64,000 nucleotides of DNA from a virus. Positions 35,712 through 51,226 of this stretch are shown one piece after another. The number at the start of each line of letters is the position of its first letter. Position 1 is the first letter of the stretch. Location of the stretch: the IMG/VR virus record IMGVR_UViG_3300031413_000569. One strand, written 5' to 3'. The notes below the pieces were generated by a model that did no database searches, had not been told where the DNA came from, and saw only the letters and a program-made list of their open reading frames with translations. Made by a program: the position numbers and the translations under genes.

Positions 35712-36737
35712 TTACTTGTTAGACACTGAATCTGTCAAAGGTAAACTTACTTGCTGAGAAACACCAATAACAGGCTTCGTAGATTCGATCATCAAACCAG
35801 ACCCAGGCTTCAAACCACGAGAGCTAACCCATTCAGATTGGACCTTCAACTCTTTTCTTACTGAGTCTAACGCAACATCAATAACAGTCTGCACTTCAGA
35901 GTTCAAGTTCGACAAAGTAACCACAACCTCATCCACATCTAAAGACCCACCCAGACGCTGTAGTTGTTTCATGTTACGAACCAAACCTGCATAATCCTGC
36001 TGCACCCGTGAAATAATATGCTGCTCCTCTGCAGCTAATTCATTCAAAGATACAATCGCCATCTTCTTCACCAAAGCTTCTGACAAAATAACAGCTTCTC
36101 CCACAAAAACATCTGGTTCGGAAGCAACATCGATGTTAGCTATCTCAGTGGTAGAAGAGTGTGCAAGGTCCAAGCCAAGAACTCGGCCCAGATTTTTATC
36201 AGCAGAAGAGTGTGCGAACTCCAAGCCAAGAACCAAACCCAGATTCTCATCAGTTATATCAACCTTCAACACCAGGTCAGTACCATCTTTAGATTCCAAT
36301 ACCAAATGTACAGCATGCTGAGCAGAGATACTGTCGATACTATCCCACACTACCTTCTCCTGCTCTGATGACAGTTGTAAACTATAACGGGCAGCCAGCC
36401 AAGTTTTCAAAGCTTCAAAGTTCAACGAATTTGCTGCATGGAGTTTATCATCAAAACGAGCTCGCCTAACTCCAACAGCAGCCGCAAGGCTTACCGCTAT
36501 CGCAGTCGAGCTACCGATGATAATTTGAGCGGGTCCGTCCAAGCCAAGAAAAGCTGCAGTAATACCACCTACAGGAAAAGTAAGACCGCCAGAAAATAGT
36601 GGGAAAAAAGTGGCACCTGAACCCATGAAACTTGACCAAAAAGAAGTCTTCACCGGATTCACCACAGGATGAAAAGCTTCTAAAGCTGACGGAGCAGGAA
36701 CCAGCACTTTGTTCTTCAGTACAACAGTTTTACTCAT
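35712..36737 (-). CDS. Two-TM protein with XpaC-like C-domain and a 17-aa internal duplication
   Basis: LKTWLAARYSL; EEQHIISRVQQD; VQSEWVSSR. Confidence 0.8.
   Translation of the reverse strand: MSKTVVLKNKVLVPAPSALEAFHPVVNPVKTSFWSSFMGSGATFFPLFSGGLTFPVGGITAAFLGLDGPAQIIIGSSTAIAVSLAAAVGVRRARFDDKLHAANSLNFEALKTWLAARYSLQLSSEQEKVVWDSIDSISAQHAVHLVLESKDGTDLVLKVDITDENLGLVLGLEFAHSSADKNLGRVLGLDLAHSSTTEIANIDVASEPDVFVGEAVILSEALVKKMAIVSLNELAAEEQHIISRVQQDYAGLVRNMKQLQRLGGSLDVDEVVVTLSNLNSEVQTVIDVALDSVRKELKVQSEWVSSRGLKPGSGLMIESTKPVIGVSQQVSLPLTDSVSNK
36153..36248. repeat. Imperfect 51-bp tandem duplication
   Basis: agaagagtgtgc..ccaagccaagaac...cccagatt starting at 36153 and 36204. Confidence 0.8.
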
Positions 36738-36742
36738 GCAAA

Positions 36743-37846
36743 TTACCTAACCCTATTCTTCTCATATTCCGTGCCATCCACAGATACTGGTGCAACCTCA
36801 TCAACAATAACAGATGCTGGCAAAACCAAAGCAGAATCACTCACCAACTGGCGTGATTTCAGATAAGCATTCTGCGACCTAAAATCATTCGCTAACACAT
36901 CAGTTTCCTGCTGTAATAAGATACTCAATTCGTTGTTCAGAAGAGTTAGATTCTCTGCCAACAACGTAGCTGCAACCTCAACTTCACCAGCAGAAGAAAG
37001 CTTGCTAAACAAATTCAAACCCTGACGCAAATCTTGCTGAGAACGCAGCAATGCATGCTGAGACTCAGTAGATAACGACAAATCTTCCAACACGCGTTGC
37101 TTTGCTTTGAAGCTCTCCAACAGCACAACACATTCATTAGGTAACAGGTCGGTATCAACCAATAATTTAGCCTCAGCCAACTCCTGAGTCGCAACATTTT
37201 GAACCAATGCAGCAGGAGTCACTGTCGCTTCTTTCTCCGTTGCTGATTTGACTTCCTCAACAAACCAACCAGCTTTGACTGTATCGTAAGCAAAGTTCCA
37301 GAGTCTACCCACGTTGTTAGTGTCAACAAACTGAACAGGAGTCTCCCAGTAAAGATGGACAACCATATTACGCAAATCATCCTCAGGCACAGAAGACAGA
37401 CTGTAACGGCTCCTAAGCCACTCTTTCAGAAACTCAGTATTGTATTGATGGTTCTCTTCAACCAAAAACTTGGCTGTATCTGCTTTTTCACGCGTCACAT
37501 ATTTGAAAACTCTAAAAGAAGCGTAACCCAGTAAAGTGAAACCAGTCGCACAAGCTCCGAAAGCTGCAGTCGCTATACCAGGTCCTACTGTATCCAAGAT
37601 TTGAGAGCTAGGAAAAATTGAGACAAAAGCTCCACCTACAGAAGGAAGAATAAAGAATCGACCCTTACCACGGTCGTCTCTACCTTCGAAGCTTAACTCC
37701 ATCCTCGCTTTTGAATCCAATAAAGGAGTGAACAATTCAGAACCTGACTGCATCTTTGGCGCCCAAGTTTCAACCATAGCCTGGAAAGCATCAACATCAT
37801 AGCCGACGATCTTATCATTCTTCATCACCATAATATCAGATGACAT
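36743..37846 (-). CDS. Two-TM protein with XpaC-like C-domain
   Basis: LKEWLRSRYSL; WNFAYD...GWFVEE; ESQHALLRSQQDLRQ; SQNAYLKSR. Confidence 0.85.
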   Translation of the reverse strand: MSSDIMVMKNDKIVGYDVDAFQAMVETWAPKMQSGSELFTPLLDSKARMELSFEGRDDRGKGRFFILPSVGGAFVSIFPSSQILDTVGPGIATAAFGACATGFTLLGYASFRVFKYVTREKADTAKFLVEENHQYNTEFLKEWLRSRYSLSSVPEDDLRNMVVHLYWETPVQFVDTNNVGRLWNFAYDTVKAGWFVEEVKSATEKEATVTPAALVQNVATQELAEAKLLVDTDLLPNECVVLLESFKAKQRVLEDLSLSTESQHALLRSQQDLRQGLNLFSKLSSAGEVEVAATLLAENLTLLNNELSILLQQETDVLANDFRSQNAYLKSRQLVSDSALVLPASVIVDEVAPVSVDGTEYEKNRVR

Positions 37847-38921
37847 TCTGACCCTCCTTCATGTCGACAGTTTTAGTTTCCAACATCAACGCAGAAGAAG
37901 TAACACCCTCAACAAGTTGGCGTGAACGCAAATAGTCTTTCTGTACACGGAACTCATCATTCAGTCCAGCAGCAACAGCAGACACCATACCCCGAGCTTC
38001 CTCATTCAACACAGTCAACACTTCAGCCAAATGCTGCTCACCTTCCACAATGCTCTCCGCATCATCCAACTCAACCAGCTTCACATAAGTTGAAACAGCC
38101 TGACGAACATCCTCACCACGCCGCAAGAAAGCATGCTGGGACTCAGTAGGCAAATTCAGCTTAGCCAACTTGGCCTGCCAGTTCATGAAACTCTCCATCA
38201 ACAAAGCACACTCACCAGGCAAAGAAACTGTTTCAGACCTTGCTGCAGGTAAAGCTACAGAAGCTTCCTTAGCTTCAACAGTTTTAGCCTCTTCAACAAA
38301 CCAAGAGTTGTTTCCGCCGTAGCTGAACTTCCACAGACGGTCTGGATGTCCATCATCGGAGAACTCCACATCCTTAGAATCCTGACCTTTGTTCACAGCA
38401 CGAACACTATCCAACATCTTCGACACATAACGTGTTGACACAGTGGACAAACCATACCTGGAACTCAGCCACATCTGCAACGCATAATGCTCAAACTTAT
38501 CGAGCTTGCGAAGCAGACCACTGTACGTATCCTTCTCTTTCTGCCGGCCCCGTCGCACAAGAGTCCATAAAGTCACACCCACCGCAATTCCAGCAGCCAC
38601 ACCTCCACCAGAACCAAACAACAGTAAATTATTCATCACCAACTGGACAGGCTCACCCCCAGTTGTCGCTAAATAAACGATAGGAGTGAAAGCACCAGCC
38701 AAGCCCACCGTAGTCCCTGCAGCAGCACCTAAAGTACCACTTTCGTCATCAGCATATGCCAGCTTATACAGTAGCTCCTGCTCTTCAGAGTTCACCAAAG
38801 AAGAGAACAACTCACCCCCAGAACTCATCCTGTTCGTCCACTCAGTTGTACGAACATCAAGAACATTAGTGTCAATAGACTCTGGGTAATCCTTATGATA
38901 AATCACAATATCAGATGACAT
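37836..38921 (-). CDS. Two-TM protein with XpaC-like C-domain (start placed at MSSDI)
   Basis: LQMWLSSRYGL; WKFSY...SWFVEE; ESQHAFLRRGEDVRQ; VQKDYLRSR. Confidence 0.85.
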   Translation of the reverse strand: MSSDIVIYHKDYPESIDTNVLDVRTTEWTNRMSSGGELFSSLVNSEEQELLYKLAYADDESGTLGAAAGTTVGLAGAFTPIVYLATTGGEPVQLVMNNLLLFGSGGGVAAGIAVGVTLWTLVRRGRQKEKDTYSGLLRKLDKFEHYALQMWLSSRYGLSTVSTRYVSKMLDSVRAVNKGQDSKDVEFSDDGHPDRLWKFSYGGNNSWFVEEAKTVEAKEASVALPAARSETVSLPGECALLMESFMNWQAKLAKLNLPTESQHAFLRRGEDVRQAVSTYVKLVELDDAESIVEGEQHLAEVLTVLNEEARGMVSAVAAGLNDEFRVQKDYLRSRQLVEGVTSSALMLETKTVDMKEGQNVI

Positions 38922-40002
38922 TATTACCAACCACATCCTTCTTCTGAACCTCTAAAGCATCCAACACTAAACCAGGCTCCTGACCATAACCCAACTGACG
39001 GGACTTCAAATACGCATGCTGAGCTTGGAACTCATTGTCCAAAGACTCAAACTCCTGCTCCAGCAACACGTTCAGCTCCTCAATCAACAAACTCAAAGAC
39101 TCACCCAACCTCACCGCAGCAATATCAGATTTACCCACAGCAACCATCTTCGAGTACAAACTTAAAGCCTGACGCAAATCCTCCTGCGAACGACGAATAA
39201 CATGCTGAGCTTCAGTAGACAAAGACAACTCAGATAACGACAACTGACGAGACTGGAAACTCTCCAAAAGGACAGCACACTCACCAGGAAGCTTCTCAGC
39301 CTCAACCAGCTGCTCATCCTTCACACCCTTAGAAGCAACAAGGGAAACAGCAGAAGTCTTACCTGCAGTCAAAGCCAACCCAGCTTCCTTTTGAGCAACT
39401 GATTTCAGTTCCTCAACAAACCAGCCGTCTTTAATGGAATCATAAGCAAAATTCCACAACCTCTCCCCACTGTTTGCACTAAGGAATCGAGTCGACTCAC
39501 CACGATACATATTAGTTACCATTTTAGACAGAGTGTAATCCGTAACAGAAGACAAACCATACCTGGTGTCAAGCCAACGCTTCAAACCCTGTTTGTCGTG
39601 CTTGAAAGCTTCATTTAGAACAAACTCACTCTTAGTTTTTTCTTCACGAGTAACCTTACGAAAAATCTTGAAAGAACCAAAACCAGTCACCAAAGACGCT
39701 ACAACATTTGCTCCAAGAAAAGCAAAACTAAAAGCCATTGTTTCAGGTGAGGCAACAGCAAGCATCGGAACAGCTGAACCTGTAAAAATAACAAAACCTG
39801 GTAATAATCCGTATTTAGTCATTCCATAATCAGATTCATTTCTTTTCTTAGCAACAACCCGAGCTTGACCTGGTAACACTGGAACAAACAACTCAGAACC
39901 GGACTCCACAACAGCCTGCCAAGAATCCGCATGCTGTGCAAAAGTGTCAACACTGACACCCACAGGCTTATCCTTCTTATACACCACAATATCAGTAGAC
40001 AT
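38911..40002 (-). CDS. Two-TM protein with XpaC-like C-domain
   Basis: LKRWLDTRYGL; WNFAYD...GWFVEE; EAQHVIRRSQEDLRQ; AQHAYLKSR. Confidence 0.85.
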   Translation of the reverse strand: MSTDIVVYKKDKPVGVSVDTFAQHADSWQAVVESGSELFVPVLPGQARVVAKKRNESDYGMTKYGLLPGFVIFTGSAVPMLAVASPETMAFSFAFLGANVVASLVTGFGSFKIFRKVTREEKTKSEFVLNEAFKHDKQGLKRWLDTRYGLSSVTDYTLSKMVTNMYRGESTRFLSANSGERLWNFAYDSIKDGWFVEELKSVAQKEAGLALTAGKTSAVSLVASKGVKDEQLVEAEKLPGECAVLLESFQSRQLSLSELSLSTEAQHVIRRSQEDLRQALSLYSKMVAVGKSDIAAVRLGESLSLLIEELNVLLEQEFESLDNEFQAQHAYLKSRQLGYGQEPGLVLDALEVQKKDVVGNNVI

Positions 40003-41060
40003 TACTCAACCACATCCTTCTTCGAAACATCAACAGCAGAAACACCAGGAGCCAGAACCAATGCATCTGCAGAAGTCCTCGACCGCAAATACTCACGCTG
40101 AACCCTGAAATCATTCGCCAACACAGAAGACTTAGCAGTTACCAACATCCGAGCCTCATCATTCAACAAACCCAGAACCTCAGACAAAGCCCTACCAGCC
40201 TCAACAACACCATCAGGGTCACCAAGCTTCATCAACTTCTGATACGTGAACAGAGCCTGCTGAGCATCCTGCTGCATGCGAGAAACCTGATGAGAAACCT
40301 GATGAGAAACCTCAACATCAGAACCAACAGTCTTCAACCGGCTCAACCGACCCAGCAAAGAAACCAACAAAGCGTCAACACTCTCAGGCAAAGCAACCTC
40401 AGGGTCAGAAACAACCTCAGGAAGCTCCAGAACGCTCTCTGCTGCCCTCTCACCCGCAACAACAGCTTCCCGCTGCTCCACAAGATAATAAGCCTGCTCA
40501 GTGGCTCCAGCCTCACTTTCAGAAGACTTCAACTGATAAGGTCGACCAGATTCAGCAACAAAAATTTCAGACGGAACTTCATTCACAATGATAGCTTCAG
40601 CCATCAAACGAACATCCTCATCAGAAAAAGACTCACCATAAACATCTTCCAGCCAAACCTCAACCAAGCTGACAGTAACAGTAACCATCTTGCTAACAAC
40701 AACAGCGTTCCTGGAAAATCGGGTCCTATGCCACAAACCCAGAGGTACTGCAGTCACAACAGCAGTACCCAGAAAAGCCAAGAAACTAACCATGGGACTC
40801 CCGCTGTCACCAAGCAAAGCTATTGGAAGTATGCCAAGAAAACCAGGACCAAAGCACAAAGGTGCAGTCAATTCAGCAGCAGTGTTGTCCCGCACACGAG
40901 TCGCCCACGCAGAATCAAAAATAGAAACAAACTTACCAGCAAATCTTGCCCCATCAGACACAGAAGAACGAGGAGCTAAAAACACATCCTCCTTCACAGC
41001 CTTCAACTGAGAACCAAAACTAAGACTCTCAACATCCGTTTTTACAAGATCACTACCCAT
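40002..41060 (-). CDS. Two-TM protein with XpaC-like C-domain (start placed at MGSDL, RBS aggggt)
   Basis: VEVWLEDVYG; RMQQDAQQALFTY; VQREYLRSR; the longer ORF call to 41126 runs into a terminator. Confidence 0.8.
   Translation of the reverse strand: MGSDLVKTDVESLSFGSQLKAVKEDVFLAPRSSVSDGARFAGKFVSIFDSAWATRVRDNTAAELTAPLCFGPGFLGILPIALLGDSGSPMVSFLAFLGTAVVTAVPLGLWHRTRFSRNAVVVSKMVTVTVSLVEVWLEDVYGESFSDEDVRLMAEAIIVNEVPSEIFVAESGRPYQLKSSESEAGATEQAYYLVEQREAVVAGERAAESVLELPEVVSDPEVALPESVDALLVSLLGRLSRLKTVGSDVEVSHQVSHQVSRMQQDAQQALFTYQKLMKLGDPDGVVEAGRALSEVLGLLNDEARMLVTAKSSVLANDFRVQREYLRSRTSADALVLAPGVSAVDVSKKDVVE
40280..40312. repeat. 12-bp tandem repeat, 2.75 copies (VSHQ VSHQ VS)
   Basis: gagaaacctgat gagaaacctgat gagaaacct. 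Confidence 0.9.
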
Positions 41061-41121
41061 GAACAAACCCCTAACAAAATATACTCCCCACACTACCACA
41101 CCACAACCCAGAAAACAACTG

Positions 41122-41175
41122 CACACAACACAAAAAGGGGAGGATGTCAGTTCCGAAAAACCATCACCCTCCCCT
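41122..41175. terminator. Terminator-containing direct repeat, copy 1
   Basis: cacacaacacaaaa-aggggaggatgtcagttccgaaaaaccatcaccctcccct. Confidence 0.8.
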
Positions 41176-41191
41176 CACAAACAACTTTCAG

Positions 41192-41635
41192 CTATTCGCT
41201 TTCTCGTCCATTAGAAGAATCAGTTATCCTCAGAAGAACATAACCATTATATGATTCATCCCAAATCTGGATACTGACAACCCCAACAAAACATCTAGTC
41301 TGCGTTTCACTTAGTGTCTCACACTGATCGGGGGTCAATGCTTTTGCCCTCTCAGTAAGAATGCTAAATGCTTCATCCCCTTCTATTCCAGCCTGGAAAA
41401 ACGACGGAGAAAACACTCCATCCCCATGGTCGTACCGTGCAGTAAGAACTTCACCAGCTTCTGAATAACCCAAATTATCCCGTACATCATTAACACGACT
41501 GTAACGCTGTTCATCCGGCAAAGGCGTAAATTGCTCGACTGCATTAGACCACCCGCAACCACTCAGGGTAAAAGCCCCTACCAGCCCCAAAGTGACCATT
41601 ACAAATGTTTTCTTATGTCCGACTGAACTACTCAC
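41192..41635 (-). CDS. Lipoprotein
   Basis: Signal peptide with LSGC lipobox. Confidence 0.75.
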   Translation of the reverse strand: MSSSVGHKKTFVMVTLGLVGAFTLSGCGWSNAVEQFTPLPDEQRYSRVNDVRDNLGYSEAGEVLTARYDHGDGVFSPSFFQAGIEGDEAFSILTERAKALTPDQCETLSETQTRCFVGVVSIQIWDESYNGYVLLRITDSSNGRESE

Positions 41636-41713
41636 TAAAGCTCCTATTCCTGATTCCCCCGCATAGCCAACGCCACACTCCTCAACGTTATCAGCTCCCT
41701 AACCCAAAACCCC

Positions 41714-41770
41714 CACACAACACAAAAGAAAGGGGAGGATGTCAGTTCCGAAGAACCAACACCCTCCCCT
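41714..41770. terminator. Terminator-containing direct repeat, copy 2
   Basis: cacacaacacaaaagaa-aggggaggatgtcagttccgaagaaccaacaccctcccct. Confidence 0.8.
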
Positions 41771-41787
41771 TCAAGAGAAGCTAAAGA

Positions 41788-42924
41788 CTACTCACCAGCG
41801 TTAGCAGAAGTTGTAGCAGGCACCTCATCATGCGCACCCACAGTCTCAACCTCACCACCAGCAGCCTTCACACGCTTGTTACGCACCACCGAAGAAACCA
41901 GAGCCGCGATAATCAGCACAATACCAATCAAACCAGTCACAATCTCAGGAATCGGAATCGCAATCGACACAATCAACAGACCAGCCAACGCACCAATCGC
42001 CCAGTGAGCACCATGGTCCAAGTACACATACTCATTCAGAGTACCCTTACGGACCAAGAAGATGGTAATGCTACGAACAAACATAGCACCAATCAAACCA
42101 AGACCCAGAGCGATGATAATCGGGTCAGTCGTGATAGCCAAAGCACCAATCACACCATCGAACGAGAACGAAGCATCAATGACCTCAAGGTACAAGAAGC
42201 TGAAGAACGCAGCCTTACCAACAAGCTTAGTAACACCAGCAACACGAGTACGCTCCTCATCCTCCTCCAAACGGTTCTCAAAGTACGAACCCAAAGCGTT
42301 CACAAGAAGGTAAGTAATCATACCAGCAACACCAGAAGTCATCACAGTCACAGCATGGTCGCCAGCCTCAGCAGCAATCACAAGCAAAGCACCAGCAGCC
42401 ACAATCACAGCAGCATAGTCAACCTTGCCAATCTTCGACAAAGGAGCCTCCAACCAACGCAGCCACTTAATGTCACGGTCCTCAAAAATGAAGTCCAAGA
42501 ACAGCATCAGCAAGAAGATACCACCAAAAGCAGCAATCTGAGGATGAGCATCATGCAGAATGTGAGCATAAGTACCAGGCTCATCAATGCTACCACCAGC
42601 AAGAGCAAGGTTCCACGCCTCAACAGGGTTCAAACCAGTAGTCGCACCCACAATCACAAGAGGGAACGCGATACGCATACCGAAGACTGCGATAATGATG
42701 CCCACTGTGAGGAACATCTTTTGCCAAAAATCAGACATCTTTTCGAGGATTCGGGCGTTGACAACAGCGTTATCAAAACTTAAACTCACTTCGAACGCAC
42801 CGAGCAACAGTACGAGCAAAAGAGCCTCCCAGCTACCATAAAGGTAGCCGGCGATGAGTGCCACAATCGACACGATGATGGACCCGGCGAAAATACGCAG
42901 CGGGTGGTGGGCGTTTGAAGCCAT
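41788..42924 (-). CDS. terC: TerC-family (DUF475-type) integral membrane protein
   Basis: EVSLSFDNAVVNA, AVFGMRIAFP, YLEVIDASFSFDGVIGA, YLDHGAHWAIG. Confidence 0.92.
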   Translation of the reverse strand: MASNAHHPLRIFAGSIIVSIVALIAGYLYGSWEALLLVLLLGAFEVSLSFDNAVVNARILEKMSDFWQKMFLTVGIIIAVFGMRIAFPLVIVGATTGLNPVEAWNLALAGGSIDEPGTYAHILHDAHPQIAAFGGIFLLMLFLDFIFEDRDIKWLRWLEAPLSKIGKVDYAAVIVAAGALLVIAAEAGDHAVTVMTSGVAGMITYLLVNALGSYFENRLEEDEERTRVAGVTKLVGKAAFFSFLYLEVIDASFSFDGVIGALAITTDPIIIALGLGLIGAMFVRSITIFLVRKGTLNEYVYLDHGAHWAIGALAGLLIVSIAIPIPEIVTGLIGIVLIIAALVSSVVRNKRVKAAGGEVETVGAHDEVPATTSANAGE

Positions 42925-43033
42925 GTGTAGGGTTTTCCTTTTCTCTAAGAAACGTTATGAGAGTAACTGTAGCGCATCTAAATTATCTGTGCAACTCGCA
43001 ATCGTAGCGGGTGCTTCAACTGCATATGCACTT

Positions 43034-43062
43034 ACTATACTGCATCTGTCTTACCTTGTCAA
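43034..43062 (-). promoter_or_regulatory. Consensus housekeeping-sigma promoter for terC
   Basis: TTGACA-17nt-TATAGT. Confidence 0.75.
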
Positions 43063-43067
43063 ATATC

Positions 43068-44504
43068 TCACGAGTTTAGCTTTCCAAGCCAACTATAAAC
43101 CGCCTGGCGTAGCTCAGATGAATCTTTTTGTTGTAACCAATGAAGCTGAAGCAGATGTGGGTGGGATAAGTTTATAAAGTCCAAAGTAGCGTTTTTTCGA
43201 GCTTCTCGAATACGGACAACAAGATAACCTGCTTCCAATAAAGCTTGAGTCTTTTCAGTGTCTCGCAGTAAAGGAGTTGTTGCATCTTGTTTTCTTTGCC
43301 CAGAATGCCAGTACCAGCCATCGTATTCTATAACTATAGATTTATCTATGTACATGCCCAGAATGTCTACTTTAATTTGTTTCCGGTTCCGCCAGGGTAC
43401 AGAGATAGCTGAATTGTATTCTTGTCTGACTTGGGTGACAACTGAATCTAGAGTAAAAGCTTCGCGGAGTTTGGCTTCAACAGAACTTGTATTACTTTGT
43501 GCACAAATTGGACATCCTCTGGCTTGCCAAGCATCAGTTCTTCCTGCTATCGCCGCTTCCCACTCATGTTTTTTGTCGCACATCCACCAAGCTTTCATCC
43601 CTGATGCACTCATCACATCATTCGGTTCGACCGTACCATTCTTGGTAGGATGCCATTGCTTTGCAATGTCTGGCTTGACGACAGCTAAAGATTTTTCAGC
43701 TAAGACACATCGATTGCAACCATAACCCATCCGACGCATGACTGGTCTCATTTCATAATCTGGATGTCCTGATTTGTCGCACGTCCATAAAACTTTCTTT
43801 TTACTACCAGCAGAAATAACCTCAGGAGAATCAACGTTCTGGTCGCTCCACTGAGACATTAGGTAAGGAAGTACTTCGGCTACAGTCTTACCAACTAAAG
43901 TCCGACCCTTGCAGCTCGGGCAGCCTTTATCGTTTTCTACTCGGTAACTAACTCTTGTTGACCATTCATGCTGGCAAACATCACATTCCCATGTAACAGG
44001 AGTTATCGCTTTTGCATATACCTGCTCAGGTTGTAGACTATTTTTGCTGCTCCACTGAGATACTAAGTGTGGGGCGATTGCAGCAAAAGACTTTTCGAAA
44101 GGAGGGGTCTTGCATAGGGGACATCCAACATTGGACAGTCGGCGGTTTGCAATGGCAGCTAAATATTCTGGGTGTTCGTCTACAGTACATGACCACCAGA
44201 CTCTTACTCGTGATCCAGGTTTGTGGCCATCAGGAGTTGTCTCATTCTGAGAACCCCATTCTGCAGCCAGTTCAGGGTTCGCCGTTGTCAGAATCTTTTT
44301 ACTGCAAGCAGGACAATTAGAGCTACCTGACAAACGATGTGAGATTCGAGAAGACCATTCGTAGGAACATTTAGAACAGGTCCAAAGAAACTTTTGCTGG
44401 CTACCTTTAGTGATTAAACTCATAGGCGAAACATTGTTGCTACTGTATTCATTTGCGATATTGGAATCAATAAAATTCAGGTGAACGAAATTTAATGATT
44501 CCAT
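43068..44504 (-). CDS. Five zinc-ribbon (DUF4379-like) repeats + C-terminal PD-(D/E)xK/Vsr-like nuclease
   Basis: W.C...H/EW...I..R...GCP.C five times; VDIL...IEYDGWYWH; TG-C-TACAAT 6 nt before ATG 44504 suggests a leaderless start. Confidence 0.8.
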   Translation of the reverse strand: MESLNFVHLNFIDSNIANEYSSNNVSPMSLITKGSQQKFLWTCSKCSYEWSSRISHRLSGSSNCPACSKKILTTANPELAAEWGSQNETTPDGHKPGSRVRVWWSCTVDEHPEYLAAIANRRLSNVGCPLCKTPPFEKSFAAIAPHLVSQWSSKNSLQPEQVYAKAITPVTWECDVCQHEWSTRVSYRVENDKGCPSCKGRTLVGKTVAEVLPYLMSQWSDQNVDSPEVISAGSKKKVLWTCDKSGHPDYEMRPVMRRMGYGCNRCVLAEKSLAVVKPDIAKQWHPTKNGTVEPNDVMSASGMKAWWMCDKKHEWEAAIAGRTDAWQARGCPICAQSNTSSVEAKLREAFTLDSVVTQVRQEYNSAISVPWRNRKQIKVDILGMYIDKSIVIEYDGWYWHSGQRKQDATTPLLRDTEKTQALLEAGYLVVRIREARKNATLDFINLSHPHLLQLHWLQQKDSSELRQAVYSWLGKLNS

Positions 44505-44571
44505 ATCGTCATTGTAGCATAAAAAATAGTTTGATTGAGCAGATAGATACTTTATCTTAGTTAGGGACCAA

Positions 44572-47500
44572 ATGAAACATTTTTCACATCTTATGCGTGA
44601 TTTGAAGAACCAATCCAAAAATAGTACAGAGAAAGGAGACCTTTTCGAAAAAATCTCTGCTACTTATTTACTGAAATCTCCTGAATTTCATTTTGACAAC
44701 ATCACTATCGAAAAATTTGAAAAATGGAGCCGGAAGCATGGAGCTTGGTCGGGTCAATACATAGATTTAGGCATAGACCTTGTAATTACTAATTTAGAAA
44801 CTGACGAACATATAGCTATTCAATGTAAATATAGAGACGAAGAATTTCAAAACAATTTACAATATGAAGCAGTCTCTAATTTTATCAATCAAGCTAAAGG
44901 AGATAATGGAGTTAAATTCAAAAGATTAATTCTTATAACAAATTTACAAGATGCTTCCAAAAATCTGCATTCAAGTTTGAATTTGCACAATATTAGTTTT
45001 TATGGAGCTCATTGGTTTAACGAAACAAATCTTTTTCTAAAAACACAATATGGGTTTGTTCCTGAAAAAATTACCGATTTATCTCAACTTTCTGCCAAAC
45101 CAAGTTTGAACAATGTATTTACGGCTAGACCTCATCAACAATCAATTATAAACTCTGTTGAAAAGGCTCTAACTTATGCTGATAAAACTACAATTAATGC
45201 AGCCTGTGGAATTGGTAAAAGTTTTATATCCCTCAAATTGATTGCAAACAGTGCAGATACAAACAGCACTAATATTATCTTTGTACCTACACTCATGTTA
45301 GCTCAGCAGTTTATTCAGTTTATACATACTCAAAAAACATCAAAGCAATCTTTTGAAACGATTGCAGTTTGTTCTGATGAATCGGTAGTAGAGGCAAACC
45401 TATATAATTTAGACTTCAATACATCCGAAATCACAACTTTAATAGCACGAGAAGCGGATGACATTACTCAATTTATCACAAACAACAAGAACAGTAAAAG
45501 CCATAAAATAATTATAGCAACATATCATTCTGCTTACAAAATAAAACAGTCTCAAATTGCAGCTGGTTGGAGAGCGAATTTCGCAATTTTTGATGAGGCT
45601 CATAAAACAACTACGATGAGGGGACAATCTGCCTTATTTATAGACGCGGCTAAACAAATTTTCATGACAGCTACTCCCAGAATAATCAAAACTTCAAAAC
45701 ATAATTCATTCAAAGAATTTTCTTCTATGGACAACACAGATGTGTATGGAAAAATAGATACCACATATTCTTTCCGACAAGCTATCGATGAAGATGTGCT
45801 TACATCTTACAAAATAGAAATCTTGTTAACAGAAGACAAATATGTAGATTACGTGAACAATCCCCAAAAAACATATAATCCAGAGACAAAAAGTGAGATA
45901 CATACACAATTATTGACAATTGGTAAGATTGGGCTGGAACTTCAAAAGGAAAAAAAGATAGGCATTGCCTACTTTAATTCAGTAAAAGCCTCTAAACTTT
46001 TTGTAAAAGTAGCAAATAGTTTAGCCAAAGATAGAGGTTTAATCCACCAAATAGCTTGGCATATAGACGGAAGCATGACCAGCTCTCAACGAAAGCTGGT
46101 CATAGAAGAAGCAAGTCTATCAGGCGGTCTGATTTCAAACGTTTCAGTTCTTACTGAAGGTATCGATTTGCCAGAGTTAGAAGCTGTAATTTTTGCAGAA
46201 GCTCGCTCTTCTCAAATCGATATTGTTCAAGCTATTGGCCGCGTTATGCGTAAGTCAATGTCTAATCCGCAAAAAGTAGGTAGAATCATACTACCTCTTG
46301 CTGCAACTGCAGAAGCAGATGCTACTAAAGCGTTTTTGAATAACAATCAGATGACAGCGATAAAAAATGTGCTGATATCTCTTGTTGAATATGACAATGT
46401 TCTCTACGATGCATTTATCCAAGCTGTATCAGTCGACCGAAAAAATTATAGTAATAGCGATGAAAAATTCAAATATTTGAATAATTTTATCAATATTTTT
46501 GATTTTTTACCTAAAATGACTCAGGCAGAAGTATCTCATTTTTTAGATAGTCTTAAGTTTCAAATTTTAACAATTCCTACCTTGAACTGGTGGCGTAGTT
46601 ATTCAGAATACAAAAATTTTTATCAAAAAAACAACAAAAATCCTATCTATGCAAAGAATAAGAATCTTACACCAAATCAAGAACAAGATAGGCTTGCTTT
46701 GTGGGGTCAGACTCAAAAAGCTCTTTATAACAAAAATACTTTGGATTCACGTAAGGTGGAAGCTCTAGAACAATTACCTTCATGGTATTGGTCTCCATCC
46801 ATATCGATAGAATGGGAAAAAAATTTACAGCTGTTGCATGACTTTATGCAAACAAATTCCTCTTTACCCAGTACTTATGCCAAAAAAAGTGCAGAAGAAA
46901 GAAAGATTGCTAATTGGGTTGCAATACAAAAACGGAAATATAGAAAAAACGCATTGACCTTCGAACAAAGAAAAAAAATAGAGCATGCTCTTGGATTAAG
47001 TGTTGAGTCTCACCCCAGGACAAGAACTCATTGGGAAGAAGTTTATGAAGAACTAACAAATTTCATTCATAAAAATAATAGGTTGCCCTTTGCAACTTCT
47101 ATTGATTTGCATGAAAAAAAATTAGGAGTATGGAGAAATTCCCAAAAGCAAGCTTATATGGGAACTACTGTAAAAGCTTTATCTAACGACCAAAAAGAAA
47201 AATTATCCGCTCTACCCTTGTGGGATTGGGGTAAAAAAAATATCAGTTGGGATGATGCTTTTGAAGAAGTTCAAATTTTCATCGAAAAGAATAAAAGATA
47301 CCCTATACCTTCCAAAACTGAAGAAGCAATGCTAGGGTTGTGGGTCAATAAACAAAAAACTAAGCATCAAAATACCCAAGAGTATTTGAAAGCCAAAAAT
47401 ATAAAACCACTATCAGAGATTCAAAAAACAAAGTTGTCATCTTTACCCAATTGGTATGCTTCAAAAGAAGACAGTTGGCTTGATATGTGTTCCCAACTAG

Positions 47501-48372
47501 AACAATGGTTTGCTATGAATCCTAATAATTTTATTGTAGATATTGAATTTGATATACTCAAATTATGGACATCAAAACAACAAGCTTATTATAAAGCTGG
47601 TACTCTTGCACAAGAGTATGTTTTCTTGTTGGAAGAGCTTCCAAATTGGGAATGGAAAAAAACTATAAATGCAGCATGGGCAAAAAATTTTAGACAGGCT
47701 CTTACCTGGTTTGAATCATATCCATTACATAGCAATCTTAACATACCTAGTGACATTAAGGCTTTTCTCAAAAAACAGCATACTAACTACCACCAACTTT
47801 CTATCTTGCAGAAAAAAATGCTCATAGAAGTGCCAACATGGATAACAATAAAACTTGAACAAGAAAAAGCGAAAAACGCTTTGCCCAGCTCAGTAACTAT
47901 GTCTAAGCCATGGAATATGCCACGACAAATCGTAGAAACTATCAACAGCAAAGCAATTACATCAATAGTGCAACAGCTACTTGTAGAAAAACAAATACCG
48001 CTTCATTGGTCTAACCAATATTTATCAGTGGTCAACTATCGAGAAAATTATGCAATAGAGCTTTGGGAGTACCTACCAAATGAACTACTAAAATGGCTTG
48101 CTCAGCAAAAAACTGCATATAAAAGACAAACGCTTAGCCCGTTACAATTAGAGCTCTTGCAAAAAATTGATTTGAATCCAGATGTACGATTTATTTCTAG
48201 TTCTTGGCTATCTAAATATCAAGTAGCACAACAGTGGAAAGATAATAATAAACAAGCGAACATATTTGAACATCCTGATTTGGAAATATCTAGTTGGGTT
48301 GGCGCTCAACTTGCCAGGAAAAATTCTCTTTCAGAAAAACAGCGGCAGTTACTCTACTTGCTTATTGGATGA
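44572..48372 (+). CDS. Mrr-like restriction-endonuclease domain + SF2 helicase + about 8 helicase-associated (HA) repeats
   Basis: KGDLFE..D.GIDLV..AIQCK; AACGIGKS; FDEAH; MTATP; LTEGIDLP; DIVQAIGRVMR; W...Y..L..F.....P....L..W...Q repeats. Confidence 0.85.
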   Translation: MKHFSHLMRDLKNQSKNSTEKGDLFEKISATYLLKSPEFHFDNITIEKFEKWSRKHGAWSGQYIDLGIDLVITNLETDEHIAIQCKYRDEEFQNNLQYEAVSNFINQAKGDNGVKFKRLILITNLQDASKNLHSSLNLHNISFYGAHWFNETNLFLKTQYGFVPEKITDLSQLSAKPSLNNVFTARPHQQSIINSVEKALTYADKTTINAACGIGKSFISLKLIANSADTNSTNIIFVPTLMLAQQFIQFIHTQKTSKQSFETIAVCSDESVVEANLYNLDFNTSEITTLIAREADDITQFITNNKNSKSHKIIIATYHSAYKIKQSQIAAGWRANFAIFDEAHKTTTMRGQSALFIDAAKQIFMTATPRIIKTSKHNSFKEFSSMDNTDVYGKIDTTYSFRQAIDEDVLTSYKIEILLTEDKYVDYVNNPQKTYNPETKSEIHTQLLTIGKIGLELQKEKKIGIAYFNSVKASKLFVKVANSLAKDRGLIHQIAWHIDGSMTSSQRKLVIEEASLSGGLISNVSVLTEGIDLPELEAVIFAEARSSQIDIVQAIGRVMRKSMSNPQKVGRIILPLAATAEADATKAFLNNNQMTAIKNVLISLVEYDNVLYDAFIQAVSVDRKNYSNSDEKFKYLNNFINIFDFLPKMTQAEVSHFLDSLKFQILTIPTLNWWRSYSEYKNFYQKNNKNPIYAKNKNLTPNQEQDRLALWGQTQKALYNKNTLDSRKVEALEQLPSWYWSPSISIEWEKNLQLLHDFMQTNSSLPSTYAKKSAEERKIANWVAIQKRKYRKNALTFEQRKKIEHALGLSVESHPRTRTHWEEVYEELTNFIHKNNRLPFATSIDLHEKKLGVWRNSQKQAYMGTTVKALSNDQKEKLSALPLWDWGKKNISWDDAFEEVQIFIEKNKRYPIPSKTEEAMLGLWVNKQKTKHQNTQEYLKAKNIKPLSEIQKTKLSSLPNWYASKEDSWLDMCSQLEQWFAMNPNNFIVDIEFDILKLWTSKQQAYYKAGTLAQEYVFLLEELPNWEWKKTINAAWAKNFRQALTWFESYPLHSNLNIPSDIKAFLKKQHTNYHQLSILQKKMLIEVPTWITIKLEQEKAKNALPSSVTMSKPWNMPRQIVETINSKAITSIVQQLLVEKQIPLHWSNQYLSVVNYRENYAIELWEYLPNELLKWLAQQKTAYKRQTLSPLQLELLQKIDLNPDVRFISSSWLSKYQVAQQWKDNNKQANIFEHPDLEISSWVGAQLARKNSLSEKQRQLLYLLIG

Positions 48373-49211
48373 TGTGTCCGTATCTGCTCTTCACTGAACG
48401 TTGCAGTGGGTTGTAGGTCTGCAGGTAGTGGTGTGGTGTTGTAGCCGTTCCCTGTGATGCTTTCTTTGAGCATGTAGGTTTGTGATTTGGTGAGGAGTGG
48501 TGTTTTCATTGTCCATTCTGTTATCTGTGCGAGAGCATTGTGGAACAGAATGGGTGCTGGGAATGTGAGCATTGGTTTACCGAGTACGCGTGTGATGCGT
48601 TTTACGGCTGTGGAGAGCGGCAGCTGTTCAGCTCCAACGATTGGGACTGTTTGGCGGCTGAGGCGCCCTTCTGCGGCTGCTGTGATGATGTTTATGAGGT
48701 CTTCGATGGCTACAGGTTGGATAAGGGGTTCTTTGTAGCCGAGGGTTGCGAAGAGTGGGATGGTGTTTGCCGTGTTGACTATGTGGGTGATGAGGTGGTC
48801 ATTTTTGCCGTAGACGATTCCTGGTTTGAGGATGGTGTAGTCAAGTCCTGAGTTGCGTATTTTCTGTTCTGCTTTCCATTTGGATTGATGGTAAGCAGAT
48901 TTGGTTCCGGGTCTTGCTTTGAGGAAGCTGAGGTAGATGATTTTGTTGACACCTGCTGCTTTGGCTGCGTCGATGATGTTCTGTGTTCCTCGTACATGGA
49001 TGTTGAGGTAGGTTTGGTCCCCTTTTTCACGGTTGATGCCGGCGGAGTGGACTACGGTGTCGCATCCTTGGAAGGCTTGGGTGAGGTTTTGGACATCGTT
49101 GATGTTGTGTCCGTTGGTGCGGGAGATGATGACAGTGTTTTCTGGTGGGAGTGTGTCGATGTAGTGTTTGCCGATGAACCCTGTTCCACCGGTGACTGCG
49201 ATTTTCCCCAT
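48354..49211 (-). CDS. NAD(P)-binding atypical SDR / epimerase (NDUFA9-like)
   Basis: IAVTGGTGFIG, VVHSAG, YHQSKWKAE, YTILKPGIVYG. Confidence 0.85.
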   Translation of the reverse strand: MGKIAVTGGTGFIGKHYIDTLPPENTVIISRTNGHNINDVQNLTQAFQGCDTVVHSAGINREKGDQTYLNIHVRGTQNIIDAAKAAGVNKIIYLSFLKARPGTKSAYHQSKWKAEQKIRNSGLDYTILKPGIVYGKNDHLITHIVNTANTIPLFATLGYKEPLIQPVAIEDLINIITAAAEGRLSRQTVPIVGAEQLPLSTAVKRITRVLGKPMLTFPAPILFHNALAQITEWTMKTPLLTKSQTYMLKESITGNGYNTTPLPADLQPTATFSEEQIRTHHPISK

Positions 49212-49243
49212 ACTGTTTCCTTTTGTCCTGGTTACAGTGTAGG

Positions 49244-49249
49244 TATCGG
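49244..49249 (-). promoter_or_regulatory. CCGATA element
   Basis: ACCGATAC about 33 nt before start 49211. Confidence 0.55.
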
Positions 49250-49325
49250 TTTTTGGGGTGGAGGTTTGTGGACAGTTTTGAGCTGTTGGAACACATGCTG
49301 ATAAACTGATCTGTGTAGCTATCTA

Positions 49326-49604
49326 TTGAAAGGGACTGTTGTTATGGTGATGCCGAAAGATTTGCGTGCTGGTTGGGATGATTTGGATCATGAGCAGGGT
49401 GTTGCTCATTTGGAGAGAGTCCAGGAGCATGTTCAGACGGAGGGGGATAGAATCCTGAAGCGTATCCAGGAGCTGGATTTGCCTGAGGGTGATCCTTTGC
49501 ATAATGAGGTGGCAAGTGTGTTGGGTTTGGCGGTTCAGGGTTTGGGTTCTGCTGTTGATTCGCTTGTGTATCCTCCGAGGAGCCGCAGGAAAGCTGGGTT
49601 CTGA
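49326..49604 (+). CDS. Small helical hypothetical protein
   Basis: Short ORF after a CTGATA element. Confidence 0.5.
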   Translation: MKGTVVMVMPKDLRAGWDDLDHEQGVAHLERVQEHVQTEGDRILKRIQELDLPEGDPLHNEVASVLGLAVQGLGSAVDSLVYPPRSRRKAGF

Positions 49605-49675
49605 TTCTTTGAACTGGAAACAGCTAACGCCACAGTCTGCATGTCGGGACTGTGGCGTTAGCTGTATTGTGGGTG

Positions 49676-50317
49676 TTAGTAGAGGATGCCTGCACCGTGG
49701 ACGGCAAAGGTGGCGAATGCTCCTCCTGTTATCCAGATTCCCCATGACCAGATTCGGTTGGCGAGGATGAGCTTCCAAGCTCCTGTGCGGGTGACGAATG
49801 CATGGCGTTCTGCTGTTCGGAGTTGGTTGTTGTAGATGAGTCCAGTGTTGATGATGATGCTGTAGTAACTTCCTGCAACTGCAAGTGTTCCGAGTCCCCA
49901 GAGGGCAATGTCTGGCCAGTCTGCGTCAACATTGTTGACTTGGGTGATGATGTAAATGACCAGGCTGGCGATTCCTACGGCGGTGAGTAGGAAGTTGTGG
50001 GCGAAGGTTCTGGTTTGGGCTTTGGCGTTGAACCAGTACGCTGGGTGTTGGGTGTGTTGCCATTCATCTGCAGGGATTTGAGTTTTGGCTTCTGCAATCA
50101 CTTTGCGGTGTTTGTAGATGGAGATGATGGCAACTGTGATGACGTAGAGTGGAGCGACGAGGATTAGTGGGATGAGGAGAGCTCCTGCAAGGAAGGCTCC
50201 TCCACCTGCACCGAGGACACCAAGGATGACGTAGATTACAGCGTAGAGTGCTACCAGACCAAGAATGCCTTGTCGGATTGGGGCTTGGGCCTGTTCGTTG
50301 CTTTGCAGAGTGTCCAT
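49676..50317 (-). CDS. Integral membrane protein (about 5 TM)
   Basis: Several hydrophobic helices; RBS and CCGATA element upstream. Confidence 0.75.
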   Translation of the reverse strand: MDTLQSNEQAQAPIRQGILGLVALYAVIYVILGVLGAGGGAFLAGALLIPLILVAPLYVITVAIISIYKHRKVIAEAKTQIPADEWQHTQHPAYWFNAKAQTRTFAHNFLLTAVGIASLVIYIITQVNNVDADWPDIALWGLGTLAVAGSYYSIIINTGLIYNNQLRTAERHAFVTRTGAWKLILANRIWSWGIWITGGAFATFAVHGAGILY

Positions 50318-50360
50318 GTGTTTAGTTTACCAGGTTTGGGAGGGTTTGTGGTGCAAATGT

Positions 50361-50366
50361 TATCGG
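50361..50366 (-). promoter_or_regulatory. CCGATA element
   Basis: ACCGATAA about 44 nt before start 50317. Confidence 0.55.
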
Positions 50367-50416
50367 TTTGGGGTTTTGATGATATTCTGGATGAAAATTT
50401 AGGTTAGGTTTGCAAT

Positions 50417-50707
50417 ATGTACTCTTTTGTTGTCACTGTGCCGTCTTCGTTGAAAACTGTTGAAGAGGCTAAAGGTTTGCTGCTGGATGTGCCAGCAGAT
50501 TCCACGGATGTGATTCTGAACTGCCAGCATGCTAAAAAGCTGAGCGAAGAAGTGTGTGATGTTCTGGTGAAAGGTTTCACAGTTGATTTAGGGTTCAAGC
50601 TGAACGTGTTGGAAGCTAAAGCTTTGACTCGCATGAACATGACTTCATCTGTTGTGAAGTTTGATGTCAAAGATGAAGTGGTGTTCAACCAGTTCGTTTA
50701 TGCATGA
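50417..50707 (+). CDS. STAS-like (DUF4325-like) small protein
   Basis: DVILNCQHAKKLSEEVCDVLVKGF resembles the STAS pattern. Confidence 0.45.
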   Translation: MYSFVVTVPSSLKTVEEAKGLLLDVPADSTDVILNCQHAKKLSEEVCDVLVKGFTVDLGFKLNVLEAKALTRMNMTSSVVKFDVKDEVVFNQFVYA

Positions 50708-51215: not shown

Positions 51216-51226
51216 AAACTTAGGTT

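Follow-up and report, generated by a model that had tools for sequence, protein, structure and literature searches.

Results

The plus strand of the DNA described here turns from strongly A/C-rich to strongly G/T-rich across 43-48.4 kb, which raises the question of what kind of site lies at the turn. The window, as we call the whole stretch of 64,000 nucleotides, had been described in a sequence-only reading as holding a candidate bidirectional replication origin in or beside the AT-rich island between these two sides. The features of the region are as follows.

35712-42924, minus strand: left arm, made up of five ~365-aa paralogues in tandem, the gene of a 147-aa lipoprotein, and terC; G/T-rich on the minus (coding) strand
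~41130-41175: near-copy of the terC terminator hairpin, 3' of the lipoprotein gene
41729-41772, minus strand: strong intrinsic-terminator hairpin, 3' of terC
41788-42924, minus strand: terC-type membrane protein gene (DUF475/TerC; Pfam DUF475 at 2e-121), first gene of the left arm
42925-43067: terC leader and promoter region, the left border of the flip; between-strain homology stops at ~42975-42994
43068-44618, minus strand: zinc-ribbon (DUF4379 x5) endonuclease-like gene (Pfam DUF4379 at 1e-61); unskewed, with 4-fold composition at baseline
44572-48372, plus strand: strain-specific cargo gene of 1266 aa with an Mrr-like nuclease, ResIII/helicase and four HA domains (Pfam)
48354-49211, minus strand: NAD-dependent epimerase/SDR-family gene (Pfam); the right arm begins at its 3' end (48372), where the island has its fixed right border
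48372-51130, plus strand: strong part of the right arm; the plus strand is G/T-rich over genes of both directions
51131-60000, plus strand: weak tail of the right arm; cassettes of low GC and no skew interrupt it at 52.0-53.0 and 53.6-55.5 kb

Keto skew (G+T minus A+C, plus strand) was calculated in windows of 1 kb and 500 nt. It ranged from -0.2 to -0.36 over 35.7-42.9 kb and from +0.23 to +0.35 over 48.4-50.7 kb, and the extremes in 500-nt windows were -0.36 in the left arm and +0.35 in the right. In 1-kb windows, the GC skew of the plus strand was -0.19 to -0.38 and the AT skew +0.13 to +0.37 at 35-43 kb, and these were +0.25 to +0.31 and -0.09 to -0.25, respectively, at 48-51 kb. Since the background at 0-27 kb has a mean keto skew of -0.016 with an SD of 0.044 (maximum 0.114), the arms lie ~8 SD out, and the extreme skew with a change of sign that had been claimed for this region is real. 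The cumulative keto, GC and TA curves of the window each reach their minimum at the switch, within 48.23-48.35 kb. On both sides, the strand heading 5'->3' away from the flip is the G/T-rich one and the skew peaks beside the flip. The two sides had been assigned correctly before, but the left arm stops sharply at 35.7 kb, with baseline regained by 35.65 kb, and the strong skew of the right arm gives way at ~51.1 kb to a weaker tail that runs to ~60 kb; the strong skew is thus gone within 3-7 kb of the flip. In the tail, 4-fold keto skew stays ~0.3 above the orientation-matched baseline, and 4-fold GC skew is positive in genes of either direction.

The skew was greatest at third codon positions. 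At 4-fold sites, the plus strand of the left arm had a keto skew of -0.47 to -0.76 and a GC skew of -0.42 to -0.68 (minus strand: A.03-.20, C.03-.09, G.18-.27, T.54-.70). The strong part of the right arm had a 4-fold keto skew of +0.42 to +0.84 over two minus-strand genes (the SDR gene and that of a 213-aa membrane protein) and three plus-strand genes (49344-49604 and 50417-50707 among them), with plus-strand A.03-.17, C.04-.09, G.35-.44 and T.37-.57. The favoured strand therefore holds only 3-20% A and 3-9% C regardless of gene direction, compared with T.50, A.23, C.16 and G.12 on the baseline coding strand. Coding bias as the cause was rejected because right-arm genes of both orientations share one plus-strand 4-fold composition, which agrees with the earlier view that coding direction is not responsible. 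The contrast that had been drawn between terC, with G/T-ending codons, and the SDR gene, with A/C-ending codons (coding strand C.44, A.38, T.10, G.08), both on the minus strand, was also confirmed. Intergenic DNA carried the sign of its arm (-0.21 left, +0.28 right), the G/T-rich intergenic tracts noted before are present, and every gene at 0-43 kb points leftward, away from the switch, as had been stated.

The flip coincides with fixed borders of the island, which lie at the promoter of terC on the left and at the SDR 3' end on the right. Alignments between strains break off at 42973-42994 on the left, and every one of them stops at 48371-48373 on the right. The best sigma-70-like site of the region lies in the terC promoter (minus strand 43062-43034, TTGACA-17-TATAGT, 11/12 match); no rightward promoter was found near 48.4 kb. 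The AT-rich island (44.5-48 kb, 31-37% GC) has no skew and is made up of two genes, with the unskewed cargo gene, itself of 31-37% GC, forming most of it. In five other near-identical strains, the cargo slot holds a 193-, 256-, 294- or 436-aa gene, or none. The suggestion that the island is an origin or unwinding region was thus not borne out, and no non-coding AT-rich unwinding element was found in the window. The endonuclease-like gene also matched PHROG families annotated 'HNH endonuclease' (1e-29) and 'endonuclease' (1e-21). Within this clade it is a conserved neighbour of terC, with diverged alleles in L102, L154, L155, L158, L167 and L104-L106; in L167, only 53 nt separate it from terC. 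This gene together with the cargo hotspot at the flip points towards recombination. A repeat-cluster search found no repeats at the flip borders of the window, and no initiator gene was found at its flip, the right-arm proteins being without a family match.

The 4-fold keto skew of the terC coding strand was +0.75 in the window and +0.52 to +0.61 in relatives with the flip at terC, compared with +0.02 to +0.09 in relatives without it. The skew therefore belongs to the place and not to the gene, as only the clade with the flip next to terC has a skewed terC. It was kept although ~40% of 4-fold sites had turned over between the window and L104. Neutral divergence in the arms was not elevated. 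Cargo inserted within and between the arms is unskewed, which indicates that the skew depends on time. In strain comparisons, per synonymous site on the G/T-rich strand, C>T exceeded G>A 1.7-fold and A>G exceeded T>C 1.8-fold (each p=0.03), an asymmetry with the skew-building sign in both arms. Recent substitutions nevertheless erode the skew in net terms (104 away from G/T vs 45 towards, p=1.5e-6), and the equilibrium G/(G+A) that they imply is 0.48 vs 0.75 observed. Present-day mutation is too weak to account for the skew. Prolonged single-strandedness, which had been suggested, fits the mild excess of C>T and A>G, but at 4-fold sites the gain of G is larger than the loss of C, so plain cytosine deamination of single-stranded DNA is insufficient.

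A distant IMG/VR relative of 344,889 bp (G001) and a 189-kb contig (G002) allowed the same question to be asked at another locus. In G001, |keto| was >0.3 only at 20.25-27.75 and 30.5-34.75 kb (remainder SD 0.059, maximum 0.25): the whole sequence has exactly one skew domain, at a locus different from that of the window, and G002 has the same single domain. The flip of G001 is at 30.4 kb, where the sign changes within ~40 nt. Beside it lies a 1.5-kb unskewed non-coding patch with conservation above its surroundings. The repeats at this flip centre are clustered 8-mers that lie in the patch, with five copies of GTGTTCAT in 480 nt (vs ~0.06 expected from shuffles) and four copies of TGTAAACA in 290 nt (vs ~0.04 expected), both motifs having been found after looking. 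The gene next to the patch encodes a 666-aa protein with a weak Replic_Relax match (E=0.0036, 17.8 bits, where the cut-off is 25.3 bits); a genome-wide scan of G001 gave no Replic_Relax match, and a Bac_DnaA search found no DnaA gene in it.

Neither credible genes nor a good leftward promoter were found in the 12-kb left arm of G001, which is apparently dead DNA. It holds a 75-nt inverted copy of a right-arm gene, the only arm-to-arm similarity. The first right-arm genes are transcribed rightward, and a rightward fork from the flip would face 290 kb of head-on genes. The global cumulative skew is monotonic with its minimum at ~337-339 kb. G001 encodes rIIA-like, topoisomerase II and homing-endonuclease proteins. 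Its DUF4379 homologues (103-104 and 118-120 kb) and a homing-endonuclease gene (150-152 kb) show no comparable multi-kb sign-flipping skew, with at most one 1-kb window (150.25-151.25 kb) >|keto| 0.2. No endonuclease gene or variable island was found at the G001 flip, and the G001/G002 alignment runs straight through. The ends of G001 carry a 55-nt inverted repeat, and G002 spans both the flip and the two joined ends of G001, which are 30 kb away from the flip. No 7- or 8-mer was over-represented in or common to the four arms of the two loci.

GRINS are defined by mean |GC skew| and |TA skew| >0.15 over >500 bp in 150-nt windows and by a duplicated region of >500 bp with >80% DNA identity to a nearby region, and are 0.3-1.4 kb long (PMC8256042). 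The mean |GC skew| and |TA skew| were 0.28-0.30 and 0.24 in the window arms and 0.26-0.36 and 0.25-0.26 in the G001 arms, with 0.09-0.13 in the background. GC and TA skews were correlated over the window domain (r=0.65) and the G001 domain (r=0.83; background 0.11-0.23), with r=0.00 in the left arm of the window alone. No GRINS-type duplication was found: the longest internal DNA match was 76 nt at 78%, the best matches at 27-43 kb were this one and 71 nt at 80%, and no DNA repeat of >76 nt (78-80% identity) is common to the five left-arm paralogues.

Discussion

The locus is best described as a domain, anchored at one point, in which a giant actinobacterial phage-like element has undergone strand-asymmetric substitution. 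As a 345-kb relative has exactly one domain of this kind, it resembles a scar left by DNA synthesis starting over and over at the same place. A local initiation zone or phage origin for DNA synthesis is therefore the leading reading, an unproven candidate to which we give a little less than even weight. We infer that a DNA transaction starts repeatedly at a single fixed site, with the promoter of terC on one side and the SDR 3' end on the other, and would proceed outward from there in both directions. Over the first few kilobases, the displaced outward strand may remain single-stranded or its copying may be biased, and over time the outward 5'->3' strand would lose A and C and gain G and T at all unconstrained positions. 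If bulk replication begins elsewhere or in random directions, no genome-wide replichores would form. T4-type phages use a few origins early and recombination-primed replication later. Replication of this type would explain a local footprint without replichores, and G001 has rIIA-like and topoisomerase II genes. Local initiation is favoured by the mirror-image polarity, the indifference to gene direction and terminators, the single domain of G001 and G002, the features of the G001 flip, the dependence on place and time, and the sign of the ongoing substitution asymmetry. Against it stand the lack of replichore-wide skew, the net erosion by recent substitutions, the unraised neutral divergence of the arms, the excess of G gain over C loss, the head-on genes that a rightward fork would face in G001, the search for DnaA in G001 that found none, and the flip of the window itself, where neither repeats nor an initiator gene were found.

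The main rival, which we consider rather unlikely, is that double-strand breaks or recombination recur at a hotspot, after which the ends are resected and the outward 5'->3' strand is synthesized anew with a bias, as a single-copy form of the GRINS process. The strand resected on each side of a break is the one running 5'->3' away from it, so fill-in favouring G.T mispairs might make it G/T-rich on both sides. The window suits this idea, as its flip is a strain-variable cargo slot with fixed borders beside a conserved, unskewed endonuclease-like gene, and its skew is above the GRINS thresholds with correlated GC and TA skews. GRINS are linked to gene conversion and frequent in Actinobacteria, where 15% of them overlap endonucleases (PMC8256042). 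A gain of G exceeding the loss of C suits a polymerase or repair bias more than deamination, and the 75-nt inverted copy in the G001 left arm is also in its favour. However, the G001 flip has neither an endonuclease gene nor a variable island, the DUF4379 and homing-endonuclease loci of G001 lack a comparable domain, a general repair process would hardly be expected to leave a single domain in 345 kb, and at 7-12 kb the arms are longer than resection tracts tend to be.

Strong transcription running both ways out of the centre, in which R-loops would leave the non-template strand of each arm exposed, agrees with the polarity, with the near-consensus leftward promoter in front of uniformly leftward left-arm genes, and with the rightward first right-arm genes of G001. 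We find transcription-associated mutation improbable, because the plus-strand composition of the right arm is the same in both gene directions and no rightward promoter was found near its start. The skew is also equal upstream and downstream of the strong terminators at 41.77 and 41.17 kb, which argues against one transcript producing the left arm; the left arm of G001 is skewed although no credible genes or good leftward promoter were found in it, and highly biased genes elsewhere, such as the TerD genes, show ordinary codon bias unlike the arm pattern. For the classical chromosome-type origin dividing two replichores that had been proposed, the expected C/A-rich to G/T-rich switch is present at the cumulative minimum of the window, and left-side genes are co-oriented with a leftward fork. 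Replichore-wide skew is nevertheless absent in the window and in G001: the arms fade to baseline within 3-12 kb, and beyond them 4-fold GC skew does not differ in sign between 0-27 and 52-64 kb. The minimum of G001, far from its flip, counts against such an origin by the test that the sequence-only reading had itself named; with no DnaA gene in G001 and coding, strain-variable cargo in place of the AT-rich element, we regard it as very improbable. Selection for strand composition or for polar motifs guiding a DNA motor (packaging, translocation or recombination signals) would be in keeping with recent substitutions opposing the skew, as if selection or biased conversion held it above mutational equilibrium, and with its maintenance across a diverged clade. 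This is likewise very doubtful, as the arms share no over-represented 7- or 8-mer, all unconstrained sites are affected, including the apparently dead DNA of G001, and young inserts are unskewed. An assembly artefact, joined genome ends or a local inversion might be suspected from the contigs that break within terC and from the inverted repeat at the G001 ends, yet we judge this extremely unlikely. Five contigs, which come from three metagenome datasets or more, span SDR, island and terC, and this excludes joined ends and misassembly; G002 likewise reads over both the flip and the ends of G001. An inversion would leave the weakest skew at its breakpoint, whereas at each of two unrelated loci both arms are most skewed right next to the flip.

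The domain shares features with several known systems. Like the asymmetry at bacterial origins, where the leading strand is G/T-richer, the locus shows the switch polarity, silent-site skew independent of gene direction and an excess of C>T and A>G; unlike it, the skew is several times stronger (4-fold 0.5-0.9), local and without a matching terminus switch, and no DnaA gene or dnaA-dnaN context was found. Strand displacement in vertebrate mitochondrial DNA likewise gives C>T and A>G on the exposed strand, distance grading and extreme silent-site bias. Here, however, the genome is phage-like, double-stranded and 350 kb in size, two mirror-image arms leave a single point in it, the gradient declines away from the start, and we know of no such replication mode in these elements. 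At T4 oriF/oriG and in ColE1, R-loop-primed local initiation occurs beside a promoter and displaces the non-template strand. The site here is also promoter-adjacent, and the recombination-primed later replication of T4 would leave no replichores; to our knowledge, a skew footprint has not been reported at T4 oriF/oriG or ColE1 origins. The likeness to GRINS lies in intense, positively correlated GC and TA skews, a third-codon-position peak, abrupt sign changes, amino-acid use pushed to Gly/Val/Cys/Trp or Pro/Thr/His/Gln, and the actinobacterial setting. The domain differs from GRINS in lacking repeated DNA, in its length of 10-24 kb, in covering non-coding DNA and in occurring once per genome, with a single sign change, fixed polarity, an anchor at one site and fading with distance.

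Strand skew is the chief sequence-only clue to replication origins and usually fails in phages. A sharp, once-per-genome footprint of 10-24 kb would directly mark a cis-acting site in uncultured giant phages, and their origins or initiation zones might then be readable from sequence alone. We tentatively propose that one mirror-image, site-anchored 'skew butterfly' per giant actinobacterial phage genome marks the initiation of DNA synthesis, and that it is written by an as yet undescribed process of strand-specific substitution, for the most part A>G and C>T in the outward strand, that may also lie behind the GRINS of Streptomyces. The domain offers a single-copy, site-anchored counterpart to GRINS, the mechanism of which has been open since 2021, and if the proposal is true, their cause could be tested in a compact system with a natural strain series. 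As the bias reshapes protein composition and seemingly erased 12 kb of genes in G001, it acts as a local evolutionary force. The A/C-rich strand of the domain also holds long false ORFs, such as one of 317 aa antisense to terC, and assemblies are prone to breaks in the domain, with several contigs ending within terC.

Results

The skew of the window changes sign between two arms. In 1-kb windows of the plus strand, the left arm (35-43 kb) showed a GC skew of -0.19 to -0.38 and an AT skew of +0.13 to +0.37, and the right arm (48-51 kb) showed a GC skew of +0.25 to +0.31 and an AT skew of -0.09 to -0.25. The keto skew, (G+T) minus (A+C), reached extremes of -0.36 and +0.35 in 500-nt windows, about 8 SD outside the background of the first 27 kb (mean -0.016, SD 0.044). 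The cumulative GC, TA and keto skews all had their minimum at 48.23-48.35 kb. Neither arm is an inverted duplicate of the other.

The skew was highest at third codon positions. At the 4-fold sites of two minus-strand and three plus-strand genes of the right arm, the plus strand had A.03-.17, C.04-.09, G.35-.44 and T.37-.57, while the minus strand of the left arm had A.03-.20, C.03-.09, G.18-.27 and T.54-.70, against a coding-strand baseline of T.50, A.23, C.16 and G.12. This skew was the same whichever way the genes pointed, and the intergenic DNA of the arms had the same sign as the genes. The sequence-only reading, which had proposed a strong sign flip beyond the effect of coding direction, was thus confirmed by the windowed profiles and the 4-fold sites, and it had correctly described the codon endings of terC and the SDR (NAD-dependent epimerase) gene, the G/T-rich tracts and the AT-rich island. 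The arms it had outlined are real, with two corrections to their limits: the left arm ends abruptly at 35.7 kb, and strong skew in the right arm reaches no further than 51.1 kb. Beyond this point a weaker tail extends to about 60 kb (excess about 0.3), interrupted by low-GC cassettes without skew. GC at the 4-fold sites of the arms rose from.28 to.36-.52, with more G gained than C lost, indicating that plain cytosine deamination is insufficient.

An origin had been suggested in or beside the AT-rich island at the flip. The island was found to consist of two genes, one of which is swapped between strains; it is cargo and not an origin.

Genes of the island
43068-44618, minus strand, zinc-ribbon (DUF4379 x5) endonuclease-like gene
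44572-48372, plus strand, Mrr-nuclease/helicase/HA gene, 1266 aa

All near-identical strain contigs (SDR arm about 96-97% identical) kept the order SDR gene, island, terC, and strain alignments placed the island borders constantly at 48371-48373 and about 42975-42994. Between the SDR stop codon and the DUF4379 gene lies a cargo slot with fixed borders (window 43068-48372; contig stretches L102, L154, L155, L158 and L167). Six strains carried six kinds of content in it: the 1266-aa gene, a 193-, 256-, 294- or 436-aa gene, or nothing. The DUF4379 gene was beside terC in every strain compared, as diverged and unskewed alleles.

Eight metagenome contigs (L154, L155, L158, L167 and L168-L171) ended or began inside terC, at residues 58-148 or 321-349, which suggests strain-level mosaicism or assembly trouble. 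In the left arm, a 147-aa lipoprotein gene (41192-41635) is enclosed by two near-identical 45-nt terminator hairpins (window 41130-41772). Its skew is far below that of its neighbours (4-fold keto skew -0.26 vs -0.75), and it looks as if it had been inserted later as a cassette; in L170, another insert, 4.3 kb long, occupies this position.

The comparison of terC across loci separated the effect of place from that of the gene. The 4-fold keto skew of terC was +0.75 in the window and +0.52 to +0.61 in L103-L106 (77-88% identical to the window terC), where the skew also flips at the terC start. It was +0.02 to +0.09 in G001, the 345-kb relative described below, and in L107 (75% identity), and -0.07 in L110 (68%). 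Only 59% of the 4-fold sites shared by the window and L104 were identical, with 40% expected by chance, so the skew has been kept despite heavy silent-site turnover. DNA inserted within or between the arms was without skew. Taken together, these data point to a process that is bound to position and cumulative, not to selection acting on individual genes.

The genes of the window include a Ter-type stress cluster (StiP, PRTase, C-C lyase, TelA and TerD genes, and terC/DUF475) and those for DnaE, a RecG-like helicase and NAPRTase. Its DnaE shared only about 45% identity with the DnaE of actinobacteria and actinophages, and a search of IMG/VR with it found no relatives. A 39-mer of the window likewise had no exact match in IMG/VR. 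The genome contig search gave terC matches from bacteria only, none above 66% identity. The closest public relative was IMG/VR contig 3300045988_179014 (344,889 bp; G001), whose terC is 75% identical to that of the window in a syntenic Ter cluster. Both the C-C lyase alignment and a 43-mer taken from the flip of G001 matched only G001 and G002, a 189-kb contig 91-98% identical to G001. G002 is labelled as a provirus in IMG/VR, yet it aligns with G001 over almost its whole length. The phage status of G001 is based on the IMG/VR call and on PHROG matches to rIIA-like, topoisomerase II, homing-endonuclease and tape-measure-like proteins; the Terminase_6N, Terminase_6C, HK97 capsid and DnaA models gave no match in G001. 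On this sequence evidence, the window and G001 elements are treated as putative giant phage-like genomes of Actinobacteria. Neither the window nor the G001 flip contained a tRNA or a match to an Rfam family.

G001 harbors a single skew domain. Its keto skew lay between about -0.3 and -0.5 from 19 to 30.4 kb, stood at about +0.45 at 30.5 kb and fell to 0 by about 43 kb; the sign switched within about 40 nt (30,400-30,440). No 1-kb window in the rest of the 345 kb exceeded 0.252, and terC lies away from the domain, at 273 kb. G002 carries this same domain, and only this one. The 12 kb of the G001 left arm (18.5-30.4 kb) contain no credible ORF, whereas 76% of the rest of the genome is coding, and none of the stop-codon reassignments tried opened ORFs there; 3-periodicity was a weak coding guide, as known genes were also low in 3-kb windows. 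The arm may consist of genes eroded by the skewing process, or it may encode a long non-coding transcript. Between G001 and G002, divergence was about neutral with many indels in the non-coding left arm, and it was not raised in the coding right arm.

Adjoining the G001 flip is a non-coding, unskewed 1.5-kb patch with 96-100% conservation, compared with 85-93% around it. It contains five copies of GTGTTCAT in 480 nt and four copies of TGTAAACA in 290 nt, which we regard as a lead because the motifs were picked out after looking. The 750 nt to the right of the patch are G/T-rich and non-coding; the genes that follow encode a 666-aa protein, a VirB11/T2SSE-type ATPase and an NAD-dependent ligase. 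The 666-aa protein had a Replic_Relax match below threshold. A 75-nt piece of its gene (32,060-32,134) has an inverted copy with 95% identity in the non-coding left arm (25,384-25,458), whose orientation relative to the skew is unchanged. Just outside the left arm, at 14.6-18.5 kb, are five small paralogues with a C-terminal 'PSINFVELVDW' motif.

About 290 kb of G001 genes (40-330 kb) are nearly all on one strand, and the part with mixed orientation, from 330 kb across the ends to 40 kb, houses the skew domain. G002 links the two ends of G001 through 5 kb of extra genes (G002 5.9-10.9 kb, reverse complement), and the inverted terminal repeat listed for G001 in IMG/VR is exactly 55 nt and lies within coding sequence. 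G001 thus does not physically end there, and a linear genome with inverted terminal repeats was dropped.

Strains were aligned over both arms, and singleton differences were polarised by majority rule only; the counts are small. At synonymous third positions of the G/T-rich strand, C>T (25 of 159 sites at risk) exceeded G>A (65 of 692) 1.7-fold (p=0.03), and A>G (20 of 233) exceeded T>C (39 of 830) 1.8-fold (p=0.03). The sign was equal in both arms. Since the G/T-rich strand is coding on the left and mostly template on the right, an asymmetry of the right sign is at work at present, independently of sense transcription. Among the polarised singletons, 104 changes were away from G/T vs 45 towards it (p=1.5e-6), and the implied equilibrium G/(G+A) was 0.48 vs 0.75 observed. 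The present asymmetry is too weak to explain the observed skew. This would be explained by an episodic process, by selection or biased conversion upholding the skew, or by singletons rich in variants due for loss. Dinucleotide contexts showed no TC or CC depletion and no sign of an APOBEC-like deaminase.

Discussion

We tentatively favour, at slightly below an even chance, that the skew domain is a local initiation zone for DNA synthesis, since each genome has a single domain, its anchor is fixed, the arms are symmetrical and the skew is independent of transcription units; the repeats and conserved patch of G001 are a further reason. At a start site of DNA synthesis or transcription, the displaced outward strand, running 5' to 3' away from the flip, would be exposed, giving the polarity seen. 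Divergent transcription could expose the same strand, but it appears improbable because the right arm has genes of both directions and the left arm contains terminators. A bidirectional chromosome-type origin, as the sequence-only reading had proposed, would form replichores; the whole-genome skew profile of G001 contradicts this, and we consider it very improbable. The replication mode of T4 could, with T4-like gene content, explain the absence of replichores.

The same polarity might also be reached by resection at a recurrent break followed by biased re-synthesis of the outward strand. Such GRINS-like break and repair synthesis is rather unlikely in our judgement: GRINS (repeated skewed regions linked to gene conversion and frequent in Actinobacteria; PMC8256042) provide a precedent, and the window's flip has an endonuclease-like gene and a cargo hotspot, but the G001 flip has neither, and the other endonuclease genes of G001 lie in DNA without a comparable skew domain. 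Deamination of the 3' tail that survives resection was rejected, as it would turn the outward strand A-rich, the opposite polarity. Selection on a motif or on composition could uphold a skew, but no 7- or 8-mer was over-represented or common to the four arms, and we give this little credence, as little as the replichore-forming origin. An artefact or inversion is hardly credible. The SDR gene, island and terC are read through by five contigs, which come from at least three metagenome datasets, and this excludes misassembly and the joined genome ends that had also been suggested.

The domain passes the GRINS thresholds for skew intensity and GC/TA correlation but lacks the repeats that define these regions, and thus it is not a GRINS. 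Its polarity is like that of origin-linked skew, whose genome-wide extent is absent here. New here are the one domain per 345 kb, the place-not-gene test with terC, the strain-level spectrum and the fixed-border cargo slot at the flip.

In the window, the motif TATCGGTT (CCGATA on the other strand) occurs at 49244, 50361, 53042 and 63225, 35-50 nt upstream of minus-strand gene starts, and may be a promoter or leader motif specific to this element. Long open frames of 151-317 aa also occur on the A/C-rich strand, antisense to or beside real genes, because stop codons are scarce there. These false frames would be a trap for gene callers.

False open frames in the window
40290-40979, plus strand, false open frame
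41830-42783, plus strand, false open frame
49323-49778, minus strand, false open frame
53081-53605, minus strand, false open frame
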